Made by a program: the position numbers and the translations under genes. This document shows positions 4,051 through 60,172 of a DNA stretch of 64,000 nucleotides, in pieces. Position 1 is the first letter of the stretch, and each line of letters opens with the position of its first letter. The notes beneath the pieces were generated by a model. That model was not told where the DNA came from. It made no database searches and saw nothing but the letters and a program-made list of their open reading frames with translations. Source of the stretch: Vicinamibacterales bacterium (GTDB lineage: Bacteria; Acidobacteriota; Vicinamibacteria; Vicinamibacterales; UBA2999); contig JBFWOG010000005.1 of the NCBI GenBank assembly GCA_050250645.1, positions 22,942 through 86,941 of the forward strand. Direction: 5' to 3'.

Positions 4051-4800
4051 CTAGTCGCCATTGCCGAGGGCCTGCTCGCCGAGCAGGCGCGACGGGCGGG
4101 GCTTGGGGCGGCGCTTCAGGCCGAAGCGCTTCACGGCGTGCTCCTCGATGTGGGCGATCGCCTCCGGGATCGAGTCGGTGACCAGCATCAGGTCGAGGTC
4201 GCGCGCGGAGATCGTGCCGGCCGTCAACATCTCGCCGAGCAGGTCCGTGAACGGCTTCCAGTAGTCGCGCCCCATCAGCACGACCGGGAACTGCTTGATC
4301 TTGCCGGTCTGGATGAGCGTGAGCGCCTCGCAGAGCTCGTCGAGCGTCCCCAGCCCGCCCGGCAGGACCACGAACGCGTACGAGTACTTGAACAGCAGCA
4401 CCTTGCGCACGAAGAAGTAGTGGCAGGTGACCCACCGGTGGAGGTACCGGTTGGGGAACTGCTCGTGGGGCAGCGTGATGTTGCACCCGACCGACCGCCC
4501 GCCGCTCTCGTACGCGCCGCGGTTCGCGGCCTCCATCACCCCGGGGCCGCCTCCCGTCATCACCGTGAACCCCGTGCGGGCCACGGCCGCGCCCACCTCG
4601 CGTCCGAGCTGGTAGTACGGGTGGTCGTCGGCGAAGCGCGCCGACCCGAAGACCGTGACGCACGGGCCGACGAAATGGAGGCCGCGGAAGCCGCGCAGGA
4701 AGTCGCGCCCCGCCCGGAGCAGGAGCGTCAGCTCCTGGAGTCGCGAGTGCGGGCCTTCGAGCAGGACGAGGTCGGAACTGTCGGGGGACTCCACCGCCAT
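4051..4800 (-). CDS. LOG family / TIGR00730 Rossmann-fold nucleotide-binding protein
   Basis: ORF 4051..6738 trimmed to ATG 4800 (MAVESPDSSDLVLL...). Motifs GGGPGVMEAANRGA and VLPGGLGTLDELCE. Confidence 0.85.
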   Translation of the reverse strand: MAVESPDSSDLVLLEGPHSRLQELTLLLRAGRDFLRGFRGLHFVGPCVTVFGSARFADDHPYYQLGREVGAAVARTGFTVMTGGGPGVMEAANRGAYESGGRSVGCNITLPHEQFPNRYLHRWVTCHYFFVRKVLLFKYSYAFVVLPGGLGTLDELCEALTLIQTGKIKQFPVVLMGRDYWKPFTDLLGEMLTAGTISARDLDLMLVTDSIPEAIAHIEEHAVKRFGLKRRPKPRPSRLLGEQALGNGD

Positions 4801-4848
4801 GAGGCATTCTACCGCCCGTCCCCGGCCGATCCGCGGGCGGTCTTGCTG

Positions 4849-7083
4849 ATGGCGGCATCTCGGACGACAATCATCCGGATGTTTGCGACCGTTGTCACCG
4901 CCGTTCTGCTCGCTCTCCAGGTTGCCACGCCCCCCGGCACGGCGCCCGCGCACGGGAGGGTCATCGATGTCTCCGGGGCCGCCGTGCCCGCGGCCACCGT
5001 CGTGCTCGTCGACCGGGAGGGCGGCGAACACAGGCCCGCGGTCGCGGGCGACGGCACGTTCGCCATCGCGCCGGGGACGGTCCGCGTCCGCGCCGAGGCG
5101 CCGGGATTCGCCGCCACCGACCGCCAGGTGACCGCGGCGGGCGCCGGCGCGCTCGTGCTGGTGCTGCGCCCCGCGCCGTTCGCCGACGCGCTCGTCGTCA
5201 CGCCGAGCCGCGGCGCCGAGCGGCTGCCCGGCGCCGCGAGCGCCACGATCGTCACGGCCGCGGAGCTCGCCACCACGCCGGCCGGCGCGCTGGACGACGT
5301 CCTCCGCGCGACGCCGGGGTTCAGCCTGTTCCGGCGCGCCTCGTCGCGCGTCGCGAACCCGACGACGCAGGGCGTGACGCTGCGCGGCGTGTCCGGGTCG
5401 GGCGCGAGCCGGACGCTCGTGCTGGCCGACGGCGTGCCGCTCAACGACCCGTTCGGCAGCTGGGTCTACTGGAACCGCGTCCCCTCGGCGGCCATCGACC
5501 GCGTGGAGGTCGTGCGCGGCGCGGCGGGCGACCTCTACGGCGCCGACGCGCTCGGGGGCGTCATCCAGGTGCTGACGCTGTCGCCGTCGCGGCCGCTGCT
5601 GCGGGCGACGGTCGAGGGCGGCTCGCACGGCACGGCGCGCCTGTCGGCCTTCGGCGGCGGCCCCGTCGGCCGCTGGCAGATCGCGGGCTCCGGCGAGTGG
5701 CTCGGCACCGACGGCGTGCCGACCATCGCCCCCGAGGTGGCCGGCCCCATCGACGTCCCGGCCGGCAGCGACTACCGCACGGGATTCGTGTCCGCCGGCG
5801 GGGCCGGCGAGACCTGGCGCGCGGCGGTGCGGCTGAGCGCCTACGACGAAGACCGCCAGAACGGCACGCCCGCCCAGGTGAACTCCACCGCGTGGCGGCA
5901 GGGGAGCGGCGAGTTCGGCGGCCTGGTGGGTGGCGGGGCCTGGGAAGCGCGCCTGAGCGGCGGCAGCCAGGACTACTTCCAGACCTTCAGCGCCGTGGCG
6001 GCCGACCGGGCCTCGGAGCGCCTGACCACGGAGCAGTGGACGCCGAGCGACTTCGTCGCCGGGAGCGGCCAGTGGTCCCGTCCCCTTGGCCGCCACTCCC
6101 TGCTCGTCGGCGCCGAAGCCAGGCGGACCGAGGCGACCGTGACCGAGTACCGCTCGCTGCCGAGCGGCGTCCGCCTCGGGCCGAACGCGTTCGGTGGCAC
6201 CGAGCGCGCCGCCGGCGCGTTCGCCCGCGTGGGGCTCGCGCCGTCGGATCGCCTGACGGTCAACCTTGGCGGCCGCGTCGACACCTGGCACTCGGAGCCG
6301 CTCGACGCCGCGCTGCCGTCGCAGGACCTCTCGTACTTCAGCCCGCGCGCGAGCGCGGCGTACCGGGCGGGTGCCGTCGCCATCCAGGGCGCGGTGTACC
6401 GGTCGTACCGGACGCCGACGCTCAACGAACTCCATCGCGGGTTCCGCGTCGGCAACATCGTCACCAACCCGAACCCCCTGCTCGAGTCCGAGACGCTGAC
6501 CGGCGTCGAGGGCGGCGCGCTCTGGACCGGGCGCCGGGGCTCGGCGCGGGTCACCGGGTTCTGGAACACGCTTGACGGCGCGATCGCCAACATCACGCTG
6601 TCCGTGACGCCCGCGCTCATCACGCGGCAGCGCCAGAACTCCGACGAAATCCGCGCGGCGGGCGTCGAGATCGAGAGCGAGTTCCGTGTGACGGACACGC
6701 TGCGGCTGACAGGCCTCGCCGTCTTCACCTCCAGTCACTTCCGCGGGTCGGTCGCCTCGCCCGAGATCGAGGGCAACCGCGTGCCCCAGGTGCCCCGCGT
6801 GCAGCTTGGCGGGGGGCTCACATGGAGCGACCCCCGGCTGCTCACGGTCGCGGTGCAGGCGCGCGGCACCGGGCAGCAGTTCGACGACGACCAGAACCGT
6901 TTCGCCCTGGGCGCCTACGGCGTCGTCGACCTCATGGTGAGCCGGGCGATCGGGGACTCGGTCCAGGCCTTCGTCTCGGTCGAGAACCTGTTCGACCGCG
7001 ACTACGACACGGCGCGGACGCCGCTCCGGTCCATTGGGTGGCCGAGGTCGGTGCGGGTGGGCGCGCGGGTCGCGCTGCCCTAG
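4849..7083 (+). CDS. TonB-dependent receptor with a carboxypeptidase-regulatory-like N-domain
   Basis: ORF 4138..7083 trimmed to ATG 4849 (alternative 4879). Signal-like N-terminus, GRVIDVSGAAVPAATVVLV domain, and plug segment TLRGVSGSGASRTLVLADGVPLNDPFG. Long beta-barrel-type C-terminal region. Confidence 0.85.
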   Translation: MAASRTTIIRMFATVVTAVLLALQVATPPGTAPAHGRVIDVSGAAVPAATVVLVDREGGEHRPAVAGDGTFAIAPGTVRVRAEAPGFAATDRQVTAAGAGALVLVLRPAPFADALVVTPSRGAERLPGAASATIVTAAELATTPAGALDDVLRATPGFSLFRRASSRVANPTTQGVTLRGVSGSGASRTLVLADGVPLNDPFGSWVYWNRVPSAAIDRVEVVRGAAGDLYGADALGGVIQVLTLSPSRPLLRATVEGGSHGTARLSAFGGGPVGRWQIAGSGEWLGTDGVPTIAPEVAGPIDVPAGSDYRTGFVSAGGAGETWRAAVRLSAYDEDRQNGTPAQVNSTAWRQGSGEFGGLVGGGAWEARLSGGSQDYFQTFSAVAADRASERLTTEQWTPSDFVAGSGQWSRPLGRHSLLVGAEARRTEATVTEYRSLPSGVRLGPNAFGGTERAAGAFARVGLAPSDRLTVNLGGRVDTWHSEPLDAALPSQDLSYFSPRASAAYRAGAVAIQGAVYRSYRTPTLNELHRGFRVGNIVTNPNPLLESETLTGVEGGALWTGRRGSARVTGFWNTLDGAIANITLSVTPALITRQRQNSDEIRAAGVEIESEFRVTDTLRLTGLAVFTSSHFRGSVASPEIEGNRVPQVPRVQLGGGLTWSDPRLLTVAVQARGTGQQFDDDQNRFALGAYGVVDLMVSRAIGDSVQAFVSVENLFDRDYDTARTPLRSIGWPRSVRVGARVALP

Positions 7084-7116: not shown

Positions 7117-7923
7117 TCACGGCCCGAAGATCCGGCGGGCTGCCGCCAGCGCCCGTCCGAAGTACTCCGGCAGCGGCGCGCTCGTGCACCCGAGCTCGAG
7201 AATGATGGCGCCCGCGTAGCGGACCTCGCGCAGGGTGTGCGTGATCTCGCCCCAGTCGATCGTGCCGTCGCCCGGCGGCAGGTGGTCGTCGAACCGCCCG
7301 TGGTTGTCGGTCGCGTGCACGTGCGCGAGGCGCGGGCCGGCGACGCGCAGGCAGTCGTGCCAGACGTGGCCGAGCGTCGTGTGCCCGGTGTCCAGGCAGA
7401 CGGCGACCGACGGTGGCAGCGTGTCCAGCACGTAGGCGAACTCGTCGGGGTGACCGCCGATGAGGTGGGGCAGGGGCGTCTCGACGGTCAGCGTGAGCTC
7501 GTGGACGGCGAGGGCGCCGGCCAGCTCCTCGAGCGCGCTCCGGCAGTTGGCGAGGCGCCGCGGGACGTCCTGGCCCTCGCGGGGCACGTCGCTCGGGTGC
7601 ACGACGACGTAGCGGCCGCCGACCGTCTCGAGGGCCGTGGCGGCGGTCAGGATGGCGGCGATCGCGCCGCGGCGGTGGTGCGGGTTGTCCGCCGACAGGT
7701 CGAGCAGCCCCCCGAACGGCGCGTGAATCGATGCGGCTGCCATCCCGGCGTCGCGCAGCCGGTCGCGCACGGCGAGCGTCTGCGCGGGGTCCCACGGCGC
7801 GAAGTGCCGGGGCGGCGTCCCGATCTCGACGAGCGGGACGCCGGCCGCGGCGAGGGCGTCGAGCACCTCGAGGATCGGGCGTTCGACGCAGCCGCCCGTG
7901 GCGATCCCGATCGGCCAGCTCAT
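7117..7923 (-). CDS. Xylose-isomerase-like / AP-endonuclease-2 (endonuclease IV fold) TIM-barrel protein
   Basis: ORF 7117..8871 trimmed to ATG 7923 (MSWPIGIATGG...). Superfamily metal-ligand pattern SIHAPF, VVVHPS, TVETPL, CLDTGH, HVHATDNHGRFDDHLPPGDGTIDW, ILELG. The start overlaps the stop of the upstream gene by 4 nt. Confidence 0.75.
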   Translation of the reverse strand: MSWPIGIATGGCVERPILEVLDALAAAGVPLVEIGTPPRHFAPWDPAQTLAVRDRLRDAGMAAASIHAPFGGLLDLSADNPHHRRGAIAAILTAATALETVGGRYVVVHPSDVPREGQDVPRRLANCRSALEELAGALAVHELTLTVETPLPHLIGGHPDEFAYVLDTLPPSVAVCLDTGHTTLGHVWHDCLRVAGPRLAHVHATDNHGRFDDHLPPGDGTIDWGEITHTLREVRYAGAIILELGCTSAPLPEYFGRALAAARRIFGP

Positions 7924-9365
7924 GACGGGTACTGCTCCCGCAGGCGGTCGCGGACCTCGCGGAGGTCGCGCCCGCAGCCTGCGCGCGGACAGAGGCCCTT
8001 CTCCTGGGCCGACACGCAGTTGAGGTCGACCCACCTGTCGAGGCCGGTGGCCACCAGCCCCGCGAACACGCGCACGTCGAAGTCCGCCCGGGTGGCGGCG
8101 TCCATGCGCCGCTCCCAGCGGTCCCCCCAGCCATGGTCGCGGGCATACCGCGACCACACCAGCCCGGCGATGTGGCGCGGGTGCCAGCCCGCCGCCAGCA
8201 GGCCGCGCGTGAGGTGCTGCAGGTGCGCCGGCTGCAGCAGCAGGTCGTTCGGCTGCCTGAGCGCGGCCGACAGGCACGGGGGCCAGTCGGCGACGCCGAC
8301 CAGGTCGTAGGTGTCGGGCCAGCGCTCCGGCGGCTCCGGCGCGACCGCGTAGAAGTCCGCGTGCGCGCGGGCGAGCGCCGACCCTGCGTAGTCGTCCAGC
8401 AGCCGCCCGAGCCCGTCGGCGCAATCGGGGATGTGCGCCTCCTCGCGCGCCGCCGCCGCGGCGCCGGCCGCCGTGCCCCGGCCGCCGGCCACGAGGGCCT
8501 GCCAGTCGTCCCCGTCCCGGCGCGGCAGCGCGACGAGCGGCGGCAGCGTCGCCACGCGCGCGCCGACGATGTCCGGCCTGAGGCGGTGGAACTGGTAGCC
8601 GCCGAACGCGAGGCGGATGTGCCGCGCGTCGAGCGGGTCGCCGGCGAACGACAGGTCGATCGAGACCGCCGCATGGCCGGCCGGGCCGACCTCGCCGACG
8701 ACCGTGCCGTTCACGACGACCGGCACCGTCGACGCGCCGGCAGCGCCCGCGAGCACCAGGTGCGCCGCGTGCTCGAGCACGAGGCCGAGGCCGGTGGCCG
8801 CCCGCGCGACCCGGGCGTCGATGGCGGGCCGCGGAAACGCCACCGCGCGCCGGGACTGGGTCGCGAACCACGCCGGCACGCCGGGGGCCAGCGCGGCGAG
8901 GCGGTCCACGACCGGGGCGCCGAGCGGCACCGCGGCGGTGAAGTGATACCCGCGGCCCGTCATCAGGACGATGGGCTCGAGGCCGAAGCGCTGGAGCACC
9001 GCGCGGGTGGCGCGGTAGGCCGGCTCGAGCTTGAAGAACACGTCACCGGGATGCACGAACGGCTCGCCGGGGTCCGTCGTGTTCTGGTAGTCGAGGTCGA
9101 GGTGCACGAGCAGGCTCGCCGTGTCGTCGAGCGACCGCGCGACGTCGCCGCCGCGGGCGAGGGCGTCGGGCAGGGCGCCCGGCGGGAGGCGGGCGCACCC
9201 GTCCCAGGTCGGGAACCGGCTCGCGCCCGGCTCGAGGACGGCGATCGTCGTGGCCGTGGGCGCCCCATCGGCGCCGGTGTCGAGGTACTCCGCCATGCGC
9301 GCGCGCACGGCGGGCAGGCCGTAGTAGTCGACGAGCGGCATCGGGCCCGCGGACAGGGCAGGCAT
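7920..9365 (-). CDS. Hypothetical protein with AEP (PriS-like) primase-polymerase motifs and a C-terminal PriL-CTD-like Cys module
   Basis: 481 aa. Motif I is LLVHLDLDYQN (D90, D92). Motif II is MTGRGYHFT (G137-H141). Motif III is AAVSIDLSF (D237), followed by HIRLAFGGYQFH. The C-terminal part has DWPPCLSAAL (C364) and NCVSAQEKGLCPRAGC (C450, C459, C464). Motif reading only. Confidence 0.5.
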   Translation of the reverse strand: MPALSAGPMPLVDYYGLPAVRARMAEYLDTGADGAPTATTIAVLEPGASRFPTWDGCARLPPGALPDALARGGDVARSLDDTASLLVHLDLDYQNTTDPGEPFVHPGDVFFKLEPAYRATRAVLQRFGLEPIVLMTGRGYHFTAAVPLGAPVVDRLAALAPGVPAWFATQSRRAVAFPRPAIDARVARAATGLGLVLEHAAHLVLAGAAGASTVPVVVNGTVVGEVGPAGHAAVSIDLSFAGDPLDARHIRLAFGGYQFHRLRPDIVGARVATLPPLVALPRRDGDDWQALVAGGRGTAAGAAAAAREEAHIPDCADGLGRLLDDYAGSALARAHADFYAVAPEPPERWPDTYDLVGVADWPPCLSAALRQPNDLLLQPAHLQHLTRGLLAAGWHPRHIAGLVWSRYARDHGWGDRWERRMDAATRADFDVRVFAGLVATGLDRWVDLNCVSAQEKGLCPRAGCGRDLREVRDRLREQYPS

Positions 9366-9369
9366 GGCG

Positions 9370-9807
9370 CTATGCCTCCCCGGACCGGCCGTCGACGAGC
9401 GCCTGCACGGTGCCGCGCAGCCGGACGTGGCCGGCGAGCCACTTGACCTCGGCGGTGGTGGCGAAGGCGCTGGCCAGGCATGCGTGGGCCGGGACCAGGT
9501 CCGTCCAGGACGCCACCAGCAGCGTCGGCCGCAGGACGAGGATGTCGTGGCCGCCGAGCGGCACGAGCGCGGTCGCCGACACGTAGCCGAGGACCCGGAG
9601 GTCGGCCTCGGCGGCGGTCTCGAGCACGCGGGTCAGGAGCGCCGCGTCGACGGCCGCGGCAAGCAGCGCGAGGGGACTCCACCCCGGCGCGCCCGCGACC
9701 CGGATGGCCGGCGCCTCGTCGGTGAGCAGAGTGCAGGCCTGCCCCTCGTCCCAGACGAGCTCGGTCAGCGGCCGCTGTTCGGACGTGGGCGCCGGGAGTG
9801 CATGCAT
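9370..9807 (-). CDS. OsmC/Ohr-like protein
   Basis: ORF 9370..10350 trimmed to ATG 9807 (MHALPAPTSEQRPL...). OsmC-like segment GWSPLALLAAAVDAALLTRVLE and a second Cys in AHACLASAF. The stop is 4 nt from the next start. Confidence 0.5.
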   Translation of the reverse strand: MHALPAPTSEQRPLTELVWDEGQACTLLTDEAPAIRVAGAPGWSPLALLAAAVDAALLTRVLETAAEADLRVLGYVSATALVPLGGHDILVLRPTLLVASWTDLVPAHACLASAFATTAEVKWLAGHVRLRGTVQALVDGRSGEA

Positions 9808-9980: not shown

Positions 9981-12108
<2,128 letters not shown>

Positions 12109-47868: not shown

Positions 47869-48270
47869 CTAGCCGACGGCGACGCGCCGGGGCGACGACC
47901 CGGGCGCCTTCGGCACCACGATGGTCAGGACCCCGTTGGCCAGGTCCGCCGTGATGCCCGCGGCGTCGACGGTCGGGGGCAGCGCGAAGGTCCGGGCGAA
48001 CTCGCCGTGGCCGCGCTCGACCTGGTGGTACTGCTCGCACGGCGCCCGCGAGTCGCGCCGCCCCTGGAGCGTGAGCCGCCCGTCGTGCAGCTCGATGCGG
48101 ATCTGCTCGCGGGCGAGCCCGGGGAGCTCCGCCGTGATCAGGAAGGCGTCGGCCGTCTCGCAGAGATCGACAGCTGGCATCCATCCCTGCGGCCCGGCCG
48201 CCGCCAGGCGCTCGAGCCGGTGCTGGATGGCAAGCATGTCGCGAAGCGGGTCCCAGCGCGCGAATGCCAC
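47869..48270 (-). CDS. Hsp20/alpha-crystallin family small heat-shock protein
   Basis: The tail of ORF 47869..50628. A GTG start at 48270 gives VAFARWDPLRDMLAIQHRLERL...PAVDLCETADAFLITAELPGL...GVLTIVVPK. Start approximate. Confidence 0.8.
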   Translation of the reverse strand: MAFARWDPLRDMLAIQHRLERLAAAGPQGWMPAVDLCETADAFLITAELPGLAREQIRIELHDGRLTLQGRRDSRAPCEQYHQVERGHGEFARTFALPPTVDAAGITADLANGVLTIVVPKAPGSSPRRVAVG

Positions 48271-48429
48271 GATCCGAATCGTAGCACGATTGCCCGAAGC
48301 CGGGCCGTTCTGTGCTACGATCCACCGGTTGTACCCGTGCGCGCGGACCGGCGCCATGCGCCGCACGTCCCCGCGCCGTGCCGGCCCTGCCCATCGACGG
48401 CGGGGCCGCGCGTTCCCGACCGAGGCATC

Positions 48430-48996
48430 ATGGCTGACACCCTGCAGGCGACCCGGCTCAAGAAGGGGATGATCATCAAGCTCGACAACGAGCTGGTGCG
48501 CATCCACGACCTCATGCACGTCACCCCCGGCAACCTCCGGGGCTTCGTCCGCATGAAGGGCCGCAACCTCCGGACGCAGACCATGATGGAGACGAAGCTG
48601 CGCTCCGAGGACGTGCTCGAGCGCGCCGTGCTCGACGAGAAGGAGATGCAGTACCTGTACAACGACGGGGACGGCTATCACTTCATGGACACCACGTCCT
48701 TCGAGCAGATCCACATGACGGCGGACTCGCTCGGCGACGCGGTCGGCTACCTGAAGGCCGAGTCCACCATCAAGGTCGAGTTCTACGGCGAGGAGCCCGT
48801 CGGCGTGGAACTGCCGCCGACCGTCGACCTCAAGGTCGTCGAGACCGTGCCCGCCATCAAGGGCTCCACGGCCAGCGCGCAGATGAAGCCCGCGACCCTC
48901 GAGACCGGCATCATCGTCCAGGTGCCCCCGTTCGTCGGCGAGGGGGAGCTGATCAAGGTCAGCACCGACACCGGCGAGTACCTCTCGCGCGTCTAG
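48430..48996 (+). CDS. efp: Elongation factor P family protein (atypical loop, YeiP/EfpL-like features)
   Basis: ORF 48007..48996 trimmed to ATG 48430 (MADTLQATRLKKGMIIKLDNELVRIHDLMHVTPGNLRGFVRMKG...ETVPAIKGSTASAQMKPATLETG...). 188 aa. Confidence 0.85.
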   Translation: MADTLQATRLKKGMIIKLDNELVRIHDLMHVTPGNLRGFVRMKGRNLRTQTMMETKLRSEDVLERAVLDEKEMQYLYNDGDGYHFMDTTSFEQIHMTADSLGDAVGYLKAESTIKVEFYGEEPVGVELPPTVDLKVVETVPAIKGSTASAQMKPATLETGIIVQVPPFVGEGELIKVSTDTGEYLSRV

Positions 48997-50747
48997 CCCG
49001 CCGGCCGCCACGGCCGGCCGGCCTCGCGTTCGCGATCGAGCAGGCGGCGGAACACGCCGCCCCTCGCCAGCAGCGCCTCGAACCCTCCGCGCTCCACCAC
49101 CCGCCCCTCCTCGAGCACCACGATCTCGTCGGCGCGGACGAGCGCCTCGAGGCGATGGCTGACGAGCAGCACGGCGTGGCCGTCGGCCAGCCGCCTCGCC
49201 TGCTCCGCGATGAGCCCCGCCGTCGCCGGGTCCACCTGGGACGCCGGCTCGTCGAGCAGCACCACCGGCGTGCCGGCGAGCAGCACGCGCGCGAGCGCCA
49301 GCCGCTGGCGCTCGCCCCCCGACAGGCTCGCGCCCTGCTCGCCAATCCACGTCCCGAGTCCCGCGGGCCACGCCTCCACCGTCGACCGCAGGCCGGCCCG
49401 GTCGAGCGCGTCCACCAGCAGGCTGTCGTCCGCCTCGGGGCGGGCGAGGCGGAGGTTCTCGGCCAGCGTCCCCGTGAAGATGTCCGTCCGCTGCGCCATC
49501 CACGACACGCGGCGGCGGAGCGAGGGCTCGTCGTACGCGTCGAGGGCCCGCCCGTCCAGCCGCACGCTGCCGGACGGCGCGTCGTAGAACCGCAGCAGCA
49601 CCTGCACGAGGGTGGACTTGCCGGCGCCGCTCTCGCCGACGAGCGCGACGAGCCGTCCCGGTTCGAGGCGCAGGTCGACGCCGGCGAGCGCCGGTCGTGA
49701 CTCGCCGGGGTAGGTGAACGTGAGGCCCGACACCTCGAGCACGCCCGTCCCGCCAGGGGGCGGAAGCGCGGCGGCCGGGGCGGGGCGCGGCGCCGCGGGC
49801 GGCGCGTCGAGGCCGGGGACCCGGGTCGCGGCCGTCCACGTGCCGGCCAGCGCCTGGATGGCCGCCGGCAGCGGCGCGACGGCCTCGAAGCTCGCGAGCG
49901 CCACGAGGGCGGCGACGGCCAGCTGCACGCCGGTCACGTCCCCGGCGACGACGCGCGGCGCGATCCACGCCACGACCGCGACTGCCGTCAGGTCCGCCAG
50001 CGCCGCGGCCGCCGACGCCCCGAGCGAGCGCGCGCGCTCGGCGGCGTGTTGCGCCCGCGCGAGCCGGCCGTCGAGGCGGGCGAGGTCGTCCGCGTGCGCC
50101 GGGCCCGCGCCGAAGGCGAGCAGGTCGGCCGCGCCCTGCACGCCGTCCACGAGCCGCGCGTGCACCTCGGCCCGCAGCGTCACCCGGGCCGCCTCGGCGC
50201 GGGCGCCGAGCCGCCACGCGGCGAGCGGGACGACGAGGCCCGCGAGCACGAGGCCCGACACGGTCACGAGCGCGGCGCCCCCGTCGATGCGGCCGATGAT
50301 CCCGGCCGCGAGCATCGTCACCAGCCCCGCGCTGGCGAGCGGCCCGGCCACGCCGACGTAGGCATGGTCGACCGTGTCGACGTCGGCCACCAGCCGGGCG
50401 AGCAGGTCGCCGCTCGCGTGCCGGCGCCAGGCGGCCGGCACGAGCGGCGCGAGCGCCAGGAAGGCGTGGATGCGGAGGCGGGCCAGCAGGCGCAGCGTGG
50501 CGTCGTGCGAGACGAGCCGCTCGACGTAGCGCGCGATGCCCCGGCCGATGCCGAAGAAGCGGACGCCGACGATCGCGACCTGCAGGGCGGCAATCGGGGG
50601 ACGGCGCGCCGCCGAGGCGATGAGCCACGCGGACGTGCCCATGAGCGCCACGGATGCCGCGACGGTCACGGCCATCAGCAGCGCGCCGGCGGCCAGCCGG
50701 GCGGCGAGGGGCTTCGCCAGGCGCGCGAGCCCGCGCGCGACCCTCAC
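48993..50747 (-). CDS. cydC: Thiol reductant ABC exporter subunit CydC
   Basis: Part of ORF 48993..52253 from GTG 50747, with a GTGA overlap onto the cydD stop. Six-TM domain, Walker A GESGAGKSTLV, LSGGERQR, Walker B VLLDEP. Confidence 0.85.
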   Translation of the reverse strand: MRVARGLARLAKPLAARLAAGALLMAVTVAASVALMGTSAWLIASAARRPPIAALQVAIVGVRFFGIGRGIARYVERLVSHDATLRLLARLRIHAFLALAPLVPAAWRRHASGDLLARLVADVDTVDHAYVGVAGPLASAGLVTMLAAGIIGRIDGGAALVTVSGLVLAGLVVPLAAWRLGARAEAARVTLRAEVHARLVDGVQGAADLLAFGAGPAHADDLARLDGRLARAQHAAERARSLGASAAAALADLTAVAVVAWIAPRVVAGDVTGVQLAVAALVALASFEAVAPLPAAIQALAGTWTAATRVPGLDAPPAAPRPAPAAALPPPGGTGVLEVSGLTFTYPGESRPALAGVDLRLEPGRLVALVGESGAGKSTLVQVLLRFYDAPSGSVRLDGRALDAYDEPSLRRRVSWMAQRTDIFTGTLAENLRLARPEADDSLLVDALDRAGLRSTVEAWPAGLGTWIGEQGASLSGGERQRLALARVLLAGTPVVLLDEPASQVDPATAGLIAEQARRLADGHAVLLVSHRLEALVRADEIVVLEEGRVVERGGFEALLARGGVFRRLLDREREAGRPWRPAG

Positions 50748-52387
50748 GGGACCCGCCTCCCGCCGGCCATCCGCACCACCCGGTCCGCCGCGGCCAGGGT
50801 CGCCCGGCGGTGCGACACGAGCAGCACGGTCCGGCCCATGCGCGCCTCGGCGAGCCCCGCGACGACGGCGGCCTCGGTGTCGGCGTCGAGTTCCGAGGTC
50901 GGCTCGTCGAGCAGGAGCAGCGGCGCCGCCTTCAGGTAGGCGCGCGCCAGCGCCAGCCGCTGCGCTTCGCCGCCCGACAGGCCCGCCCCGAGCTCGCCCG
51001 TGCGGGTGGCCAGGCCGCGGGGAAGGCGGTCGACGACGCGGTCGAAGGCCGCCAGCCGCATGGCGCGACGCACTTCGGCCTCGGACGCCGCTGGCGCGCC
51101 GAGCCGCAGGTTGTCGAGAAGGGTGCCGTGGAAGAGATGGGGACGCTGCGGGGCCCAGCTCACCGCCGCCCGCCACGCGTCCGGCGTCCACGCGTCCAGC
51201 CGCACGCCGTCGACGAGCACCGCGCCGTCGGCCGGGTCGACGAAGCGCAGGAGCGCCGCGAGGAGCGTGCTCTTGCCCGCGCCGCTCGGTCCGTCGAGCC
51301 CGAGCAGTTCGCCTGCCGCGACCTCCATCGAGAATCCGGCGAGGGCCTGTCCCCGTCCCGCGCCGTAGTCGACGCGCACGTTGGTGAACGACAGGCGGGG
51401 GGGCTTCGTCAGGTTCGTCAGGTTCGTCAGGTTCGTCGGGTTCGTCGGGTTCGTCGGGTTCGACAGGTTCGACAGGTTCGTCCCCAGCGCGTCGTCGAGC
51501 GCCGCGAGCTGGCGTCCGGTCTCCTGTCCCGCGAGGCCGGCGTGGAACGACTGGCCGAGCGTCCGCAGCGGGCGGTAGAACTCGGGCGCGAGCAGCAGCA
51601 CGGCGAGTGCCTCGGGGAAGGCCACCCGGCCGTAGAGGAGCCGCAGGCCGATCTCCACCGCGACGATGGCCGTGCCCAGCGTGGCGAGCAGCTCGAGCAC
51701 CAGCGCCGACAGGAAGCCCACGCGCAGCACGTCCATCGTCAGCCGCCGGTAGCGCTCGGCCGTCTCGCCCAGGCGGACCGACTCCTCGGCGACGCGGCCG
51801 AACGCCTTGAGGGTGACCAGCCCCTGCACCGCATCGAGGAAGCGGGCGGTCAGGCGGGAGAGGTCGACCCACTGCGCGGCGGTCCGCTCCCGGGCGATGC
51901 CGCCGATGAGCCACATGAAGAGCGGGATGAGCGGGCCCGTGACGACGAGCACCGCGGCGGACAGGGGATCGATCGCGACGACCGCGGTGACGACGGCGAC
52001 GGGAACGAGCACCGCGAGCGCGCGATGCACCTGGTAGCGCGCCACGTAGGCGTCGAGGGCGTCGAGGCCGGCCGTCAGCGTCGAGGTCACCGAGCCGGCC
52101 GGCAGTTGCTCGAGGCGCCGCGGACCCGCGCCAAGGGCGCGGCGGGCATGGGCATCCCGGAGCCGGGCCTTGAGCCGGACGAGCGTCTGGCTGGCCGAGG
52201 TGTCCGAGGCCCAGCCGATCGAGGCGCGCGCCACCGCGAGGGCGGCGAGCCATGCGAGCCCCCCCGCGGCCGCGGCCACCGGGCCGCCGCTACCGAGCCC
52301 CGCCAGCACCCCCGCGAGGACGACGGCCTGGGGAATGACCAGCACGCCCGCCAGGGCGCCCAGGCAGATGGCGAGGGAAGGGGACAT
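50744..52387 (-). CDS. cydD: Thiol reductant ABC exporter subunit CydD, with a repeat-encoded linker
   Basis: 547 aa. TMD, then TNLSNLSNPTNPTNPTNLTNLTNLTK, then an NBD (GPSGAGKSTLL, LSGGEAQR, LLLDEP). Confidence 0.85.
   Translation of the reverse strand: MSPSLAICLGALAGVLVIPQAVVLAGVLAGLGSGGPVAAAAGGLAWLAALAVARASIGWASDTSASQTLVRLKARLRDAHARRALGAGPRRLEQLPAGSVTSTLTAGLDALDAYVARYQVHRALAVLVPVAVVTAVVAIDPLSAAVLVVTGPLIPLFMWLIGGIARERTAAQWVDLSRLTARFLDAVQGLVTLKAFGRVAEESVRLGETAERYRRLTMDVLRVGFLSALVLELLATLGTAIVAVEIGLRLLYGRVAFPEALAVLLLAPEFYRPLRTLGQSFHAGLAGQETGRQLAALDDALGTNLSNLSNPTNPTNPTNLTNLTNLTKPPRLSFTNVRVDYGAGRGQALAGFSMEVAAGELLGLDGPSGAGKSTLLAALLRFVDPADGAVLVDGVRLDAWTPDAWRAAVSWAPQRPHLFHGTLLDNLRLGAPAASEAEVRRAMRLAAFDRVVDRLPRGLATRTGELGAGLSGGEAQRLALARAYLKAAPLLLLDEPTSELDADTEAAVVAGLAEARMGRTVLLVSHRRATLAAADRVVRMAGGRRVP
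51404..51483 (+). repeat. Tandem nonamer array (RGGTTCGWC x9) inside cydD
   Basis: aggttcgtc x3, gggttcgtc x2, gggttcgac, aggttcgac x2, flanked by partial units. This is the reverse complement of the unit at 22459 and 39523. Confidence 0.95.
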
Positions 52388-55285: not shown

Positions 55286-56674
55286 TCAGGCTCCCGCCGG
55301 CGCCTCGAGCGCCGGCCCGGGGTGCAGTTGGACGGCGGAGGCGCCAGCCGTGGCGTACTTCGCCAGCAGGTAGACGTCCGCGACCATCAGCGCGCCGTAG
55401 ATCACCGTGAAGCCGACGAGCGAGGTCAGGACCTCGCCCGCGGTGACCGCCGGCGAGACCGCGTCCACGGTCTTCTGGAGGCCGAACACGATCCACGGCT
55501 GGCGGCCGATCTCCGTGAAGATCCACCCCGCGGAGTTCGCCAGGTACGGCAGCGCGATGGCCCACGGCAGGAGCCGCACCAGCCTGGCGCTGCCGCCGAC
55601 GCGGTCGCGCCAGACGTCCACGGTGGCCCACAGCGCGGCGAGCAGCATGAGCAGCCCCGCCCCGATCATCAGGCGGAAGGTCCAGTAGGTCCACTTGACC
55701 GGGGGCACGTAGTCGCCGGGGCCGAACTGCTGCTCGGCGAGCCGCTGCAGCTCGTTGATCCCCTTCACCTCGCCCTCGAACCGGTTGTAGGCGAGGAAGC
55801 TCAGGAGCCCGGGCACCTTGAGGGCGATGATGTCGCGCCGGGCCTCCTCGTCGCCGACGGTGAAGAGCGACATCGCGGCCGGGTTCTCGGTCTCCCACAG
55901 GGCCTCGGCCGCGGCCATCTTCATCGGCTGGATGCGGACCATGTACTGCGCCTGGTTGTGCCCGACCGCCATCACGGCGAGGGTGGCCACGAGCGCGTAG
56001 ACGGCCCCGATCCGGAACGACAGCGAGAAGGCCTCGAGGTCGCCCTCGTCCCGCGACCGGTGCAGGTGCCACGCGCTGATGCCCAGGATGAAGAAGGCCG
56101 CCGTCGCCATCGCGCCGGCCAGCACGTGCGGGAACTGCACGAAGACGTGCGGGTTGGTCGCCAGGGCGAAGAAGTCGTTCATCTCGGCGCGGCCGTTGCG
56201 GACGACGTAGCCGAGCGGCTGCTGCATGAACGAGTTGGCGATCAGGATCCAGAGCGCCGACAGGTTCGACCCCACGGCGACCGCCCAGATCGTCCCGAGG
56301 TGGAGCTTGCGGGGCAGCTTGTCCCACCCGAAGATCCACAGGCCCAGGAACGTCGACTCGAGGAAGAAGGCGAGCAGGGCCTCGATGGCCAGCGGCGCGC
56401 CGAAGACGTCGCCGACGAAGCGGGAGTACTCCGACCAGTTCATGCCGAACTGGAACTCCTGCACGATGCCCGTCGCGACGCCCATCGCGAAGTTGATGAG
56501 GAAGAGCTTGCCCCAGAACTTCGTGAGGCGGAGGTAGACGTCACGGCCCGACACGAACCAGGCGGTCTGCAGCAGCGCAACCACCCAGACCAGGCCGAGC
56601 GTGAGGGGGACGAAGAAGAAGTGGTAGACGGTGGTGATCCCGAACTGCCATCGGGCGAGGGTCACGGCATCCAT
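55286..56674 (-). CDS. cydA: Cytochrome bd ubiquinol oxidase subunit I
   Basis: ORF 55286..57328 trimmed to ATG 56674 (MDAVTLARWQFGITTVYHFFFVPLTLG...). Q-loop region and GWIFTEIGRQPW. Confidence 0.95.
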   Translation of the reverse strand: MDAVTLARWQFGITTVYHFFFVPLTLGLVWVVALLQTAWFVSGRDVYLRLTKFWGKLFLINFAMGVATGIVQEFQFGMNWSEYSRFVGDVFGAPLAIEALLAFFLESTFLGLWIFGWDKLPRKLHLGTIWAVAVGSNLSALWILIANSFMQQPLGYVVRNGRAEMNDFFALATNPHVFVQFPHVLAGAMATAAFFILGISAWHLHRSRDEGDLEAFSLSFRIGAVYALVATLAVMAVGHNQAQYMVRIQPMKMAAAEALWETENPAAMSLFTVGDEEARRDIIALKVPGLLSFLAYNRFEGEVKGINELQRLAEQQFGPGDYVPPVKWTYWTFRLMIGAGLLMLLAALWATVDVWRDRVGGSARLVRLLPWAIALPYLANSAGWIFTEIGRQPWIVFGLQKTVDAVSPAVTAGEVLTSLVGFTVIYGALMVADVYLLAKYATAGASAVQLHPGPALEAPAGA

Positions 56675-56860
56675 GGTGCGGCCTGCTCCCGTGCTGAGAC
56701 GGATGAATCCACCGGGGACGTCGCAAACGACGTACCCATGGGGAGATCCGGCGAATTCGCCCCGGAATCCGGCCCGGGCGGGCGTGGTGCCCGGGAGCGG
56801 CTGCCGGGAAACCGGCACTCCGGGGGCGGCCCCGGGCGGCGCTCGGTGTAAATTGACCCC

Positions 56861-57469
56861 ATGGACGTCGTGCGCACCCCCATCGTCGGCTGGATCGAGG
56901 TCGTCGTCGGCAGCATGTTCAGCGGGAAGAGCGAGGAGCTCATCCGTCGCCTGCGGCGGGCGCAGATCGCCCGGCAGCGGGTGCAGATCTTCAAGCCGGC
57001 GGTGGACACCCGCTTCGGGGAAGACCACATCGTGTCGCACAGCGAGCTGCGCATCCCGTCCACGCCGGTCGGGTCGGCGGCGGAACTCGAGGCGGCGGTG
57101 CTGCCCGACACGGAAGTGGTGGGGATCGACGAGGGGCAGTTCTTCGACCAGGACCTGCCCGGCGTCTGCGCGGCCCTGGCGGCCCGCGGGGTGCGCGTCA
57201 TCGTGGCGGGGCTGGACCAGGACTACCTGGGGAAGCCCTTCGAGCCGATGCCGCAGCTGCTCGCCATTGCCGAGTACATCACCAAGACCCGGGCGATCTG
57301 CATGGTCTGCGGGAACCCGGCGAACCACACCCAGCGCCTCGTGGCGAGCAGCGACCGGGTGCTGCTCGGGGCGCAGGGGACGTACGAAGCCCGGTGCCGG
57401 CGGTGCTTCGACCCGGCGCTCGGCCAGCGCGCCGAGGCGGTGGACCAGGCGCCGCAGCGGGCCGGGTGA
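56861..57469 (+). CDS. tdk: Thymidine kinase
   Basis: P-loop [22 protein letters not shown], and Zn Cys pairs CMVCG...CRRC. Confidence 0.9.
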
Positions 57470-58038
57470 TGTCAGATCTCGGCGCGCTGCTGCCGCAGGT
57501 CCTCTTCGCGCTCGGCGCGGGATTCCTCGTCGCGAACCTGCTGGTCGCGAAGGACCTGCTGCGGTGGGCCCGCCGGCGGGCCACGGCGGTGCTGGTCTGG
57601 CCGGCGCCGAAGCCCCCCTACTACGGCCTGAGCCTCGCCATCGGGGTGATGCTCGGGTTGCTCATCCTCTTCAAGGCGATCATCCAGCTGCGGCCGCCCA
57701 CCTCGCTCTTCGGGGAGGTGATGATGTTCGTCTACTACGGCTACGCGCTGCCGCTCTCGACCCGCGTCGGCCGGGGGCTGTACGCGGACGGCATCTGGAC
57801 GGACGGCGGCTTCATGCCCTACACGGAGATCGGGGGCCTCAGCTGGCGGGACGAACCCGACCCGACGCTGGTGCTCATCGCCCGCCGCCGCCCCGTGGCG
57901 CGCCGCCTGCGGGTGCCGGGCACGCGCCTCGGCGAGGTGCGCCGCCTGCTCCGCGAAAAGATCTCGAGCCACGACATCGAGTTCGACGGCGGCCCGGGCA
58001 TCCACCTGGGGGAGCGGGATACCAGGGAAAGTGTGTAG
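57469..58038 (+). CDS. Hypothetical membrane protein
   Basis: The tail of ORF 57394..58038 from ATG 57469, which overlaps the tdk TGA by 1 nt. Three hydrophobic helices followed by a soluble tail. Confidence 0.6.
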   Translation: MSDLGALLPQVLFALGAGFLVANLLVAKDLLRWARRRATAVLVWPAPKPPYYGLSLAIGVMLGLLILFKAIIQLRPPTSLFGEVMMFVYYGYALPLSTRVGRGLYADGIWTDGGFMPYTEIGGLSWRDEPDPTLVLIARRRPVARRLRVPGTRLGEVRRLLREKISSHDIEFDGGPGIHLGERDTRESV

Positions 58039-58040
58039 AT

Positions 58041-58176
58041 GAGATTTGGTGATCTCGTGATCTCGTGATCTCGTGATTTGGGATCTTGTGATCTTGTGAT
58101 CTTGTGATTTGCGATCTGGGAATCGCAGCGAACGTCAATCGTCAATCTGCAATCTTCAATCTGCAATCTTCGTGAT
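58041..58176 (+). repeat. Compound tandem octamer array (about 17 units; GTGATCTY-type then CAATCTK-type)
   Basis: gagatttg gtgatctc x3 gtgatttg ggatcttg tgatcttg x2 tgatttgc gatctggg aatcgcag cgaacgtc aatcgtca atctgcaa tcttcaat ctgcaatc ttcgtgat. Begins 3 nt after the stop at 58038 and ends about 45 nt before the ku RBS. Confidence 0.95.
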
Positions 58177-58229
58177 GCGGTCTATTGGGCCGGGCGGTGC
58201 TGTCCGATAGATCGATGACTGGAGGCCTC

Positions 58230-59120
58230 ATGGCTGCGCGACCGACCTGGAAGGGCTACATCAAGGTCAGCCTCGTCACGATTCCGATACGGGTGTATCC
58301 GGCGACGGAGTCGGCGGCCACGATCTCGTTCAACCAGCTCCACGCCGAGTGCCAGACGCGGATCCAGCAGAAGAAGTGGTGCCCGAAGTGCGAGCGCGAG
58401 ATCACCTCGGCCGAGGTGGTCAAGGGCTACGAGTTCGAGAAGGGCCGCTGGGTCGTCGTGAACGAGGAGGACATCGCGAAGGTCCGCGCGGAGTCCACGA
58501 AGGTCATCAACCTGGTGCAGTTCACCGAGGTGGACGCGATCGACCCGATGTACGTCGACAAGGCGTACTACCTGGCGCCCGAGGGGCCGATGGCGGCCGA
58601 CGCGTACGCCGTCATGCGCGAGGGCATGCAGGGCAAGGCGGGCATCGGCAAGCTGGCCATCCACGGCCGCGAGTACCTCGTGGCGGTGAAGCCGCACAAG
58701 CAGGGCCTCGTGATGTACACGCTGCACCACGCCGCCGAGATCCGGACGATCGACCAGATCGACGAGCTGCGCGAGGTGCGCGGCTCGGTGAACCCGGCGG
58801 AGATGAAGCTGGCCCGCCAGGTCATCGAGAGCTACGAGGGCGAGCTCAACCTGGCCGACTACAAGGACGAGTACCAGGCCGGCCTGCGCCAGATCATCGA
58901 CGCCAAGGTCGCGGGCGAGGAGATCGTCGCGCCCGCCGAGGCCGAGCCGCCGAAGGTCGTCGACCTGATGGAAGCCCTGCGCCGGAGCCTCGACCAGGTC
59001 AGCGCGGGCAAGAAGAAGACCGCCAAGGTCGAGGAGCCCGCCGAGGCCAAGGGGAAGCGCGCCTCGTCGAAGACCGCCGCCGCGAAGGGCGCCGGCGGCC
59101 GCAAGCGCAAGGCGTCCTGA
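58230..59120 (+). CDS. ku: Ku protein (bacterial NHEJ DNA-end binding)
   Basis: GGAGG at 58221, then ATG 58230. MAARPTWKGYIKVSLVTIPIRVYPATE...ISFNQLH...VKGYEFEKGRWV...YYLAPE, plus a Lys-rich tail. Confidence 0.9.
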   Translation: MAARPTWKGYIKVSLVTIPIRVYPATESAATISFNQLHAECQTRIQQKKWCPKCEREITSAEVVKGYEFEKGRWVVVNEEDIAKVRAESTKVINLVQFTEVDAIDPMYVDKAYYLAPEGPMAADAYAVMREGMQGKAGIGKLAIHGREYLVAVKPHKQGLVMYTLHHAAEIRTIDQIDELREVRGSVNPAEMKLARQVIESYEGELNLADYKDEYQAGLRQIIDAKVAGEEIVAPAEAEPPKVVDLMEALRRSLDQVSAGKKKTAKVEEPAEAKGKRASSKTAAAKGAGGRKRKAS

Positions 59121-59195
59121 CGTCGCGGAGTGACCGCTGGGGCTCGGCCCGATTCAACGCTGCTTGGCCCAACAGCCGCCTAAGGTACAAGCCGA

Positions 59196-59789: not shown

Positions 59790-60172
59790 CTAAAGAACCA
59801 GGTAGCGACGCAGCTCCGGTGCGATCCTTTCGTGGGTCAGCGCCGAGTAGAGAAAGGCTGACAGTGTCTCTGCGTGCTTTCGAACTATGTCCTTGCGCGT
59901 GCCCCCCTCCAGATATTCCTCGACGTTCTCTTCCTCTTTCCATCGCAGGAATTCTTCGTACAAGTCGAGAATTTGTGGCCACTGCCTGAGTATCGAGGCG
60001 TCTGCCAACAGATCCAGGGCGGACGCCAGTCGCTCAAGTGGCGGGCGACTGCAGAGTGCGACCATTGCGTCGGGTGTGTCGATTGGCTCAAGTATGACAG
60101 GTAGGACCGTGCTGAAGACCGTGACCATACGGCTAAACTTGAGATTAACGTTCTTCTTACGCCAAGGCTTAG
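59790..60172 (-). pseudogene. 3-prime fragment of an IS-disrupted nucleotidyltransferase gene
   Basis: Track ORF 59790..60128 (MVTVFSTVLPV...). The frame stays open upstream to the IS boundary and joins in frame with fragment 61497..62206 once the IS and one TSD copy are removed. Confidence 0.7.

Follow-up and report, generated by a model that had tools for sequence, protein, structure and literature searches.

A conserved bacterial gene pair encoding an AEP-fold protein and an endonuclease-IV-like TIM barrel suggests an undescribed nucleic-acid repair module

Does the compact gene cluster at positions 7117-9807 of the window, that is, the whole 64,000-nucleotide stretch of Vicinamibacterales DNA analyzed here, encode a nucleic-acid repair system? 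The cluster consists of three minus-strand genes, which encode an OsmC-like protein of 145 aa (9370..9807, start MHALP), a central AEP-fold protein of 481 aa (7920..9365) that would be the core of the module, and a PF01261 TIM-barrel protein of 268 aa (7117..7923, start MSWPI). A 4-nt gap (9366-9369) separates the OsmC-like gene from the central ORF, and the latter overlaps the TIM-barrel gene by 4 nt (ATGA, 7920-7923), coordinates that agree with the gene layout given in the original prediction; from the overlap, the TIM-barrel and AEP genes are predicted to be translationally coupled. Because the window has a G+C content of ~75%, long spurious ORFs are plentiful in it; the 481-aa ORF is a real gene and no chance ORF, as indicated by its 437 database homologues, its 646 representative clusters, and an AlphaFold2 model with a pLDDT of 91.5 and a pTM of 0.93. 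Further, an old-yellow-enzyme-type NADH:flavin oxidoreductase gene (9981..11042, minus strand; PF00724, E=9e-71) lies 173 nt upstream in the same orientation and is possibly co-transcribed with the module; it is not among the recurrent neighbor clusters of related loci, and is therefore regarded as context and not as a conserved module member.

The 481-aa protein had been predicted to be an AEP on the basis of short motifs, all of which were present in the translation at the spacings quoted (44–45, 96, and 86 aa). Motif I, D90-L-D92 in LLVHLDLDYQN, is encoded at 9090..9098, motif II, T136-G-R-G-Y-H141 (TGRGYH), at 8943..8960, and the third catalytic acidic residue, D237 of motif III in AAVSID, at 8655..8657 (all minus strand). 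Conservation was then counted over 72 homologues from three phyla. Among the four positions expected to be conserved, D237 proved invariant (72/72), whereas position 90 was occupied by D (60 homologues), E (10), or Q (2), position 92 was split between D (39) and E (33), and position 141 varied between H (66) and Q (6). Motif II followed the consensus [TS]GRG[YH][HQ], with G139 in 72/72, G137 in 71/72, and R138 in 69/72 sequences.

In the AlphaFold2 model, the three motifs are borne by beta-strands 84–95, 132–147, and 232–237, the last of which ends in D237. With the predicted structure as query, the top 22 PDB matches in Foldseek were all AEPs, and the BFVD matches were AEP primases. The best PDB match, the M. 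tuberculosis LigD PolDom, had a probability of 1.00, an E-value of 5e-3, and a target TM of 0.54–0.55, with alignments of 348–361 columns against a PolDom of 284–287 residues. This alignment and the AlphaFold2 strands delimit an AEP catalytic domain of approximately residues 1–285 (8511..9365, minus strand), followed by an all-helical C-terminal domain of residues 286–481 (7923..8510, minus strand) with four invariant cysteines. The Foldseek E-values are individually weak (at best 5e-3 in the PDB and 8.5e-4 in BFVD), which speaks against a repair reading of the locus. At the sequence level, no family match of the 481-aa protein was found in Pfam, NCBIfam, PHROGs, or PADLOC, the family profiles A1 and A3 retrieved nothing from the PDB sequences at E<=10, and similarity to PolDom proteins was undetectable. 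The structure searches returned AEPs, the sequence profiles matched no described AEP family, and the nearest relative by fold is LigD PolDom and not, as had been proposed, PriS. Taken with the conserved acidic triad, the modeled structure indicated that the 481-aa protein adopts the AEP catalytic fold, which joins an N-terminal alpha-beta unit to an RRM-like unit, and that its catalytic residues are conserved, in line with the earlier assignment.

The genomic association of the AEP gene was evaluated across related loci. The TIM-barrel gene lies directly downstream of the AEP gene on the same strand in 76/79 genomes, three proteins are AEP-TIM fusions (P0168, P0179, and P0245), and the pairwise identities of the AEP and TIM proteins correlate with r=0.95. 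Because the gene for the AEP-fold protein nearly always adjoins that for an endonuclease-IV-like enzyme, or the two are fused, the pair suggests a nucleic-acid repair module not described before; neither Pfam, NCBIfam, and PADLOC nor the literature searched contained a description of an AEP/TIM system, in agreement with the undescribed status claimed before. With a confidence falling slightly short of even, we read the pair as a stress-linked module for DNA end cleaning and gap filling, by analogy to mycobacterial Prim-PolC with EndoIV. The third gene is less constant than had been anticipated: an OsmC-like gene is found upstream in only about 20–22 of the 79 loci (~1/4), all in Acidobacteriota, and one OsmC-AEP fusion was observed (P0087). 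The window's copy had no direct Pfam match at E<=1, while its orthologues, linked to it by phmmer at 1e-5 to 1e-42, reached 30–41 bits with PF02566 (cutoff 27.5). The first catalytic Cys of OsmC/Ohr peroxiredoxins, the peroxidatic one, is replaced by Ala in the window's copy, and neither catalytic Cys is conserved among 21 aligned sequences, that is, this copy and 20 orthologues. Judged by these matches, the product of 9370..9807 is a putative divergent OsmC-fold protein and a clade-restricted accessory.

The TIM barrel matched PF01261 with E=1.1e-36 and 127 bits (Pfam cutoff 31.1). In 77 partner proteins, H67, H109, E148, D178, H181, H203, D212, H214, and E243 were invariant, except that H203 is Q in one of them. 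These residues were compared by MAFFT alignment with the metal ligands of E. coli Nfo, H69, H109, E145, D179, H182, H216, D229, H231, and E261. Eight of the nine Nfo ligands aligned column for column with invariant TIM-barrel residues, and H67, itself invariant and part of the HAP[FY] motif, was two alignment columns off Nfo H69, so that counterparts of all nine ligands were found, as expected of the endonuclease-IV-like barrel originally proposed. The same metal constellation is also present in non-nuclease PF01261 members, which counts against repair. So does the score with the curated nfo model TIGR00587, which was far below the cutoff (16.8 vs. 129.65 bits). By sequence, the nearest solved structure is MJ1311 (3wqo, E=1.6e-13), which is listed as a predicted archaeal EndoIV homologue (PMC2770678). 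Precedents for such divergent proteins point both ways: PF1383, an EndoIV-like protein, is inactive on AP DNA, a further point against a repair role, yet PfuAPE (PF0258), with ~13% identity to Nfo, is a true AP endonuclease (PMC2770678).

Other matches of the TIM barrel direct attention to small molecules. Its best NCBIfam score was with CbiR (3.5e-10, 39.8 bits vs. a cutoff of 105), its best sequence matches were CbiR and ketose (psicose/tagatose) epimerases, and its public annotation is "sugar phosphate isomerase/epimerase"; PRK01060 models matched it only at E>0.1. Accordingly, the barrel could be a sugar-phosphate isomerase/epimerase or, like CbiR, a phosphodiesterase acting on a metabolite that contains a nucleotide, and the AEP-fold protein a nucleotidyltransferase on a non-polymeric substrate, such as a stress storage or signaling compound. 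A fusion with a CBS pair (P0186), which suggests regulation by an adenosyl ligand, also favors such a pathway, as does the gene neighborhood, where NTP_transferase, PRTase, and ADH recur among the metabolic and stress genes and DNA-repair genes do not. However, all structural neighbors of the 481-aa protein are nucleic-acid primases or polymerases, the TIM barrel retains H67, H109, and the DxH residues D212 and H214 that are missing from the ketose epimerases in the alignment, and we know of no AEP-fold enzyme described as having a small-molecule product. In addition, helical accessory domains like the one found here are characteristic companions of AEP catalytic domains (PMC5862659). A small-molecule pathway is thus considered unlikely, and the end-cleaning and gap-filling reading is preferred over it.

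The helical C-terminal domain carries four candidate cysteine ligands, C364 (8274-8276, in PPCLSAA), C450 (8016-8018), C459, and C464 (7974-7976), the last three of which are contained in CVSAQEKGLCPRAGC (7974-8018; all minus strand). Each was present in 72/72 homologues and was invariant in alignment A3 as well, bearing out the conservation expected of them, and the four presumably form a metal or Fe-S site. The original prediction had further likened this module to the PriL-CTD. Its first Cys indeed lies in a PPC motif, like that of human p58C (FPPCM, verified), and is 86 aa from the second, similar to the 80 aa between C287 and C367 of p58C. The domain-only model, all-helical with a pLDDT of 86.7, had no Foldseek match with E<=0.001, and yeast p58C had the top "prob" among the insignificant matches (E 5.7–9, prob 0.13–0.15, TM 0.27–0.34). 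When a 72-sequence CTD profile was compared by hhalign with a thin PriL profile built from the human and yeast CTDs and exon fragments, the PPC/HLxHxxR stretch was aligned with P=0.17. The PriCT and PriL profiles of Pfam matched none of 34 members, and the PriL-resembling HLQH..R (HLxH) motif was confined to one clade, the Acidobacteriota. Homology of the Cys module to the PriL-CTD is therefore not demonstrated.

These features bear on whether the AEP is a de novo primase, in which the four-Cys domain would hold the initiating nucleotide like PriL-CTD or PriCT, with re-priming or restart of replication on damaged templates and trimming at the site of damage by the TIM barrel. Helical PriL/PriCT-type domains give AEPs the capacity for dinucleotide synthesis (PMC5862659), and such a domain is missing from the LigD PolDom-type gap fillers; together with the PPC-motif cysteine, the similar Cys spacing, and the faint yeast p58C match, this argues for priming. 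Against it stand the insignificant PriL-CTD similarity (TM about 0.3), the lack of PriCT/PriL profile matches, and the lack of conservation of the HLxH..R motif outside the Acidobacteriota clade; helicase and replisome genes are not linked, and the stress/dormancy context speaks against a replication role. Priming is accordingly regarded as quite improbable, and the gap-filling reading of the pair is retained.

The 481-aa family is spread over Vicinamibacterales, Chthoniobacterales/Ca. Udaeobacter, and some Clostridia, including many soil bacteria. In two phyla, Usp, P-type ATPase, HSP20, and Zn-ADH genes are recurrent neighbors. Because of this stress/dormancy setting in Acidobacteriota and Verrucomicrobiota, the module probably acts in non-replicating, stressed cells. 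The setting is patchy, being absent from the Clostridia loci and largely absent from the window, which weighs against the repair reading. Ku, which the original prediction had placed ~49 kb from the module, was confirmed at 58185..59120 on the plus strand (PF02735, E=4.5e-43). Within +/-8 kb of the pair, no Ku/ligase clusters were found across the 79 loci, and no ligase, Ku, glycosylase, or helicase gene recurs near the pair in related loci; this lack of linked repair genes likewise counts against repair.

Two further readings of the pair were considered. A ribosome hibernation factor gene lies near the pair in locus L002, and tRNA synthetase genes do so in Clostridia loci, consistent with a role in RNA repair or modification, in which the TIM barrel would heal RNA 3′ ends (2′,3′-cyclic phosphate or 3′-phosphate) and, in dormant cells, the AEP would add ribonucleotides to tRNA or rRNA or fill them in. 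The repair AEPs of bacteria as a rule favor ribonucleotides (PMC5663958), which also fits this role. However, related loci show no linked RNA ligase gene (RtcB or Rnl). To our knowledge, moreover, all EndoIV-type enzymes characterized so far act on DNA, and an RNA role is rated very improbable. An anti-phage defense or mobile-element-derived conflict system built around the AEP, suggested by the many bacterial AEPs that reside in mobile elements and conflict systems (PMC5862659) and by one BFVD match to a "TOTE conflict system primase domain" protein, is hardly credible, since the pair has no PADLOC match and the 481-aa protein no PHROGs match, relatives were absent from IMG/VR, PLSDB, and INPHARED, each genome has one stable chromosomal locus amid housekeeping and stress genes, and the AEP and TIM proteins co-diverge across phyla, which fits vertical inheritance.

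Under the preferred reading, the pair would be a conserved two-protein nucleic-acid repair module, contained in one fused polypeptide in some organisms. The TIM barrel would act first, as an endonuclease-IV-type three-metal phosphodiesterase that cuts abasic sites and/or strips 3′ blocking groups to leave a 3′-OH, most plausibly on DNA. The AEP would then extend this 3′-OH over a short gap, and may incorporate ribonucleotides like bacterial repair AEPs in non-growing cells. The four-Cys helical domain, probably with a [4Fe-4S] or Zn site, would assist the enzyme much as PriL-CTD, PriCT, or PriX domains assist other AEPs, holding the 5′ end or the incoming or initiating nucleotide, and may confer redox sensitivity on the enzyme. 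Finally, a ligase encoded elsewhere would seal the strand. A broader claim, that the locus represents a new DNA repair pathway, associated with stress or dormancy, in abundant soil bacteria and a new chromosomal AEP family with a genuine PriL-like Fe-S CTD, coupled to its own AP-endonuclease/3′-end-cleaning enzyme, seems rather doubtful. If the PriL-like Fe-S module is true, the protein would be a bacterial single-chain counterpart of PriS-PriL that is physically tied to an end-cleaning enzyme.

Among known systems, the mycobacterial Prim-PolC/LigC excision-repair complex with endonuclease IV (PMC5663958; PMC7442782), in which a bacterial chromosomal PolDom-type AEP works with an EndoIV-type end cleaner, appears to be the closest functional analogue of the proposed mechanism. 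Mycobacterial Prim-PolC fills EndoIV-processed gaps with ribonucleotides in stationary phase (PMC5663958), and the system shows stationary-phase expression, short-gap filling with ribonucleotides, and protection against organic hydroperoxides. However, the operon partners of Prim-PolC are ligases (LigC) and not EndoIV, and the protein lacks a four-Cys domain, while the AEP described here has no linked ligase, carries the four-Cys helical domain, and is obligately paired or fused with an EndoIV-like protein. The LigD PolDom of bacterial NHEJ (2r9l, 4mky), which the N-terminal domain resembles most closely in structure, has the same three catalytic motifs, at a structure-based identity of ~13–15%; in contrast to LigD, the module has neither a ligase or phosphoesterase domain nor a linkage to Ku, and has the four-Cys helical domain in addition.

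The partner protein shares the PF01261 barrel with endonuclease IV (Nfo) and the archaeal EndoIV-like proteins PfuAPE and MJ1311 (PMC2770678) and has counterparts of the nine Nfo ligands, although it scores far under the nfo cutoff. CbiR (PMC7733943), of the same superfamily, is a metal-dependent phosphodiesterase on a nucleotide-containing substrate, but its genes lie in cobamide loci, which the module's TIM-barrel gene does not, and the CbiR score of the latter is likewise under the cutoff. Similar to the 481-aa protein, PolpTN2 of Thermococcus pTN2 (PMC3973330, PMC5862659) and the monomeric primase of Nanoarchaeum equitans (PMC10250227) combine an AEP and a C-terminal helical Cys-bearing domain in one chain. 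PolpTN2 adds PriCT-1 and winged-helix domains, while the 481-aa protein has no PriCT/PriL profile match; and whereas these two enzymes are archaeal and plasmid-borne or replicative, the 481-aa protein is bacterial, chromosomal, and accompanied by a TIM-barrel partner.

The three minus-strand genes of the original prediction, encoding an OsmC-like protein (9370..9807), a central 481-aa protein (7920..9365) and a 268-aa TIM barrel (7117..7923), were recovered by ORF calling and translation, with a 4-nt gap between the first two and a 4-nt ATGA overlap between the last two. As the G+C content of the window is ~75%, long spurious ORFs are common in it; despite this background the three genes are real and lie where they had been placed, and all of the peptide motifs and spacings quoted for them matched the translations. 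A scan of positions 6700-11400 found no promoters or terminators, and is uninformative at 75% G+C. The OsmC-like gene is preceded on its strand, at a distance of 173 nt, by an old-yellow-enzyme (OYE)-type NADH:flavin oxidoreductase gene (9981..11042, minus strand) that may be co-transcribed with it; this oxidoreductase gene was no recurrent neighbor of the AEP/TIM pair in other genomes. On the other side, a convergent plus-strand gene (4138..7083) encodes a TonB-dependent receptor with Plug and beta-barrel domains and stops 34 nt short of the TIM-barrel gene. The minus-strand ORF at 4051..6738 is largely a shadow of this receptor gene, and its C-terminal ~200 aa resemble LOG/TIGR00730-type proteins by eye.

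The 481-aa protein had no match in Pfam, NCBIfam, PHROGs or PADLOC. Nothing recurrent emerged when the 34 members of family alignment A1 were all scanned against Pfam at E≤10, and searches against PDB sequences, either by phmmer or with the family profiles A1 and A3, returned noise or nothing. Its family comprises 437 matches among 90%-identity clusters, every one named 'hypothetical protein', and 646 representatives at 50% identity. The AlphaFold2 model built with 34 homologs was confident (pLDDT 91.5, pTM 0.93), and the top 22 PDB matches of this model in Foldseek were exclusively archaeo-eukaryotic primase (AEP)-type enzymes. The Mycobacterium tuberculosis LigD polymerase domain (PolDom) was matched with a probability of 1.00 (E 5e-3 to 4e-2, target TM 0.54-0.55) in an alignment spanning essentially the whole PolDom, and further matches were the CRISPR-associated Prim-Pol and human and yeast Pri1. 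Viral models again yielded AEP primases (DUF927, LEF-1, ASFV C962R and Prim-Pol N-terminal domains; best E 8.5e-4). The Foldseek E-values were individually weak; the matches were unanimous.

In the model, the three AEP motifs occupy the elements expected of them, namely strand 84-95, hairpin 132-147 and, for the third, the end of strand 232-237, and their conservation was counted in 72 homologs from three phyla and confirmed by alignment A3. Motif I is [DE]x[DE], with D60/E10/Q2 at position 90 and D39/E33 at position 92; motif II is [TS]GRG[YH][HQ], whose His is kept in 66 homologs and replaced by Q in 6; and D237 is invariant. Based on these structure matches and conserved motifs, the AEP assignment was accepted, and we regard it as very probable that the modelled protein is an AEP. 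The identity originally proposed was largely right, while its PriS specificity was an overreach, as in its predicted fold the protein is closer to repair polymerases of the PolDom type than to PriS.

The TIM barrel is a clear PF01261 member in Pfam. Its best NCBIfam scores were to CbiR and ketose epimerases, with nfo reaching only 3e-3, its public annotation is 'sugar phosphate isomerase/epimerase', and a homolog search retrieved close orthologs with generic names only. The nearest solved sequence was MJ1311 (3wqo, E 1.6e-13), which is listed as a predicted archaeal EndoIV homolog (PMC2770678). Further, 77 partner proteins were aligned with Escherichia coli endonuclease IV (Nfo) taken from NC_000913. 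Of the nine metal ligands of Nfo, eight aligned with invariant residues, H109, E148, D178, H181, H203 (Q in one of the 77 partners), D212, H214 and E243, and the counterpart of the ninth, H67 in HAP[FY], is likewise invariant and offset by two columns. The predicted endonuclease-IV-fold barrel thus keeps counterparts of all nine ligands. Since the aligned ketose epimerases are without H67, H109 and D-x-H, with a 5-residue gap at the last, the alignment favors an endonuclease-IV-like rather than an epimerase-like enzyme with a trinuclear phosphodiesterase site. These ligands leave DNA specificity unproven, because PF1383 is EndoIV-like yet inactive (PMC2770678) and the phosphodiesterase CbiR, from the same superfamily, acts on a substrate other than DNA (PMC7733943); PF0258 is a true AP endonuclease at 13.5% identity to Nfo (PMC2770678). 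That the AEP and the TIM barrel serve a small-molecule pathway, for which the CbiR and epimerase family scores speak and against which the Nfo-type ligands stand, appears unlikely.

A scan of one genome per GTDB species yielded 79 loci, of which 47 are from Acidobacteriota or other taxa, 24 from Verrucomicrobiota (among them Ca. Udaeobacter and the cultured Verrucomicrobium sp. BvORR106) and 8 from Clostridia or unclassified, with taxa as in the record titles. In 76 of them, the TIM-barrel gene comes directly downstream of the AEP gene and shares its strand, so the predicted co-conservation of these two genes was borne out; the same arrangement was present on four other long contigs. The three exceptions are one locus at a contig end and two second AEP copies without a TIM-barrel partner, L037 and L039 (8001..9330). 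Downstream of the AEP copy of L039 comes a gene for a large MFS-type transporter, and a canonical pair (L070) lies ~14 kb off on the same contig. Fusion proteins were also found, joining AEP with TIM (P0168, P0179 and P0245), OsmC with AEP (P0087) and CBS with AEP (P0186). Pairwise identities of the AEP and TIM proteins correlated with r=0.95, consistent with co-inheritance. No relatives were detected in IMG/VR, PLSDB or INPHARED, and a mobile-element origin was rejected after these empty searches.

The OsmC-like gene is an accessory and not part of the module as originally supposed, being upstream of the AEP gene in ~20-22 of the 79 loci, all from Acidobacteriota. The protein of the window has no direct Pfam match, and its orthologs elsewhere exceed the PF02566 threshold. 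The two OsmC/Ohr catalytic cysteines are not conserved and have been lost in many orthologs, the first being Ala in the window's copy, and a role as core peroxidase member was rejected. This loss suggests that the protein is probably no peroxidase here, and that its role is perhaps structural or regulatory. The AEP gene of locus L004 is 2.2 kb away from an OsmC-TIM pair (L004 2256..7449). Two opposite-strand genes stand between them, one of which encodes a PRTase-erythromycin-esterase fusion of Rv2030c-like architecture.

Residues ~286-481 of the AEP protein are all-helical in the model, and C364, C450, C459 and C464, whose conservation had been predicted, are invariant in 72/72 sequences. As in the [4Fe-4S] C-terminal domain of the human primase large subunit (p58C), whose FPPCM...HHLRHGGR was verified against PDB chains, a PPC motif contains the first Cys and a Pro follows the third Cys (p58C sequence verified). 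The first-to-second Cys distance is 86 aa, against 80 aa in p58C (C287, C367). A model of the domain alone (pLDDT 86.7) had no Foldseek neighbor at E≤0.001; yeast p58C appeared three times in its list (E 5.7-9, probability 0.13-0.15, TM ~0.3), a signal of some note, since this target had been named in advance, but a weak one. A 48-aa verified human p58C peptide retrieved only exon-sized eukaryotic fragments as a database query, so a PriL profile was assembled with human and yeast CTD sequences checked residue by residue against PDB chains. hhalign of the domain against it picked exactly the PPC/HLxHxxR stretch, at a non-significant P=0.17. The HLQH..R motif is limited to the Acidobacteriota clade, and Verrucomicrobiota have F-I-R-R-L-V-R there. 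On these results the original PriL specificity went too far. Helical accessory domains (PriL-CTD, PriCT-1/2 and PriX) are general among AEPs and thought to be mutually homologous (PMC5862659), which makes a shared origin of the four-Cys domain plausible, if unproven. Zn instead of Fe-S is possible as the putative ligand.

Neighbors were counted within ±8 kb of the AEP gene at the 79 loci (L006-L084). Usp was found at 47 (30 Acidobacteriota, 17 Verrucomicrobiota), P-type ATPase at 35, Zn-ADH at 23, HSP20, sigma-54 response regulator and PAS kinase at 15 each, PRTase and erythromycin esterase at 13 each, and BON at 7; CBS-domain proteins likewise adjoined the AEP gene. This stress-type neighborhood characterizes the Acidobacteriota and Verrucomicrobiota loci, while Clostridia loci carry housekeeping genes instead, such as hisS, aspS and phoH-like. 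Its composition presumably resembles that of the mycobacterial DosR dormancy regulon. The window is poor in such genes, having only the OYE gene directly upstream and HSP20 ~40 kb off, a segment of a long stop-to-stop ORF (47872..50931, minus strand; phmmer E 1.8e-26). A conserved secreted protein of Verrucomicrobiota loci was considered for a third operon member and rejected, its position being scattered. Genes for a ligase, Ku, a helicase or a glycosylase did not recur within ±8 kb. The Ku gene noted ~49 kb from the triad is present (58185..59120, plus strand; PF02735), but as Ku does not recur near the pair in related loci, the Ku/LigD linkage raised with it was rejected. This orphan Ku gene adjoins that of cytochrome bd oxidase subunit I (55286..57328, minus strand), with a DDE transposase gene (60183..61418, minus strand) beside it, and no ligase or LigD domain was found among the ORFs tested at 55286..61418.

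By analogy, we tentatively propose as the best-supported reading, at somewhat short of even chances, that the pair forms a repair module which cleans ends and fills gaps in cells that are stressed and not growing. The EndoIV-like enzyme would incise AP sites or take off 3′ blocks, the AEP would extend the resulting 3′-OH, perhaps using ribonucleotides, the four-Cys domain would help to handle the substrate, and the nick would be sealed by a ligase encoded elsewhere. The precedent for such cooperation is mycobacterial Prim-PolC, which in stationary phase uses RNA to fill gaps that EndoIV has processed, and which gives protection from organic hydroperoxides (PMC5663958). A genuine re-priming primase is improbable; RNA repair by the pair is more doubtful still. 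Anti-phage defense can be nearly dismissed.

If the pair is a repair module, it would represent a new end-cleaning/gap-filling pathway that may operate in soil bacteria that grow slowly or lie dormant, a group that dominates many soils, and offer a bacterial system well suited to studying how helical or Fe-S accessory domains contribute to AEP catalysis; it would also correct the misleading 'hypothetical protein' and 'sugar phosphate isomerase/epimerase' annotations in hundreds of genomes. The AEP and PF01261 superfamilies are already known and AEP/EndoIV cooperation has precedent; the present AEP family was not found in the databases and literature searched, nor was its architecture or its obligate pairing or fusion. 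To our knowledge, known bacterial AEPs are of two kinds, NHEJ/BER polymerases with ties to ligases and Ku and replicases of mobile elements. In contrast, the family described here is chromosomal, spans three phyla, is invisible to current family databases, and combines an invariant four-cysteine domain with hard-wiring to an endonuclease-IV-like enzyme.
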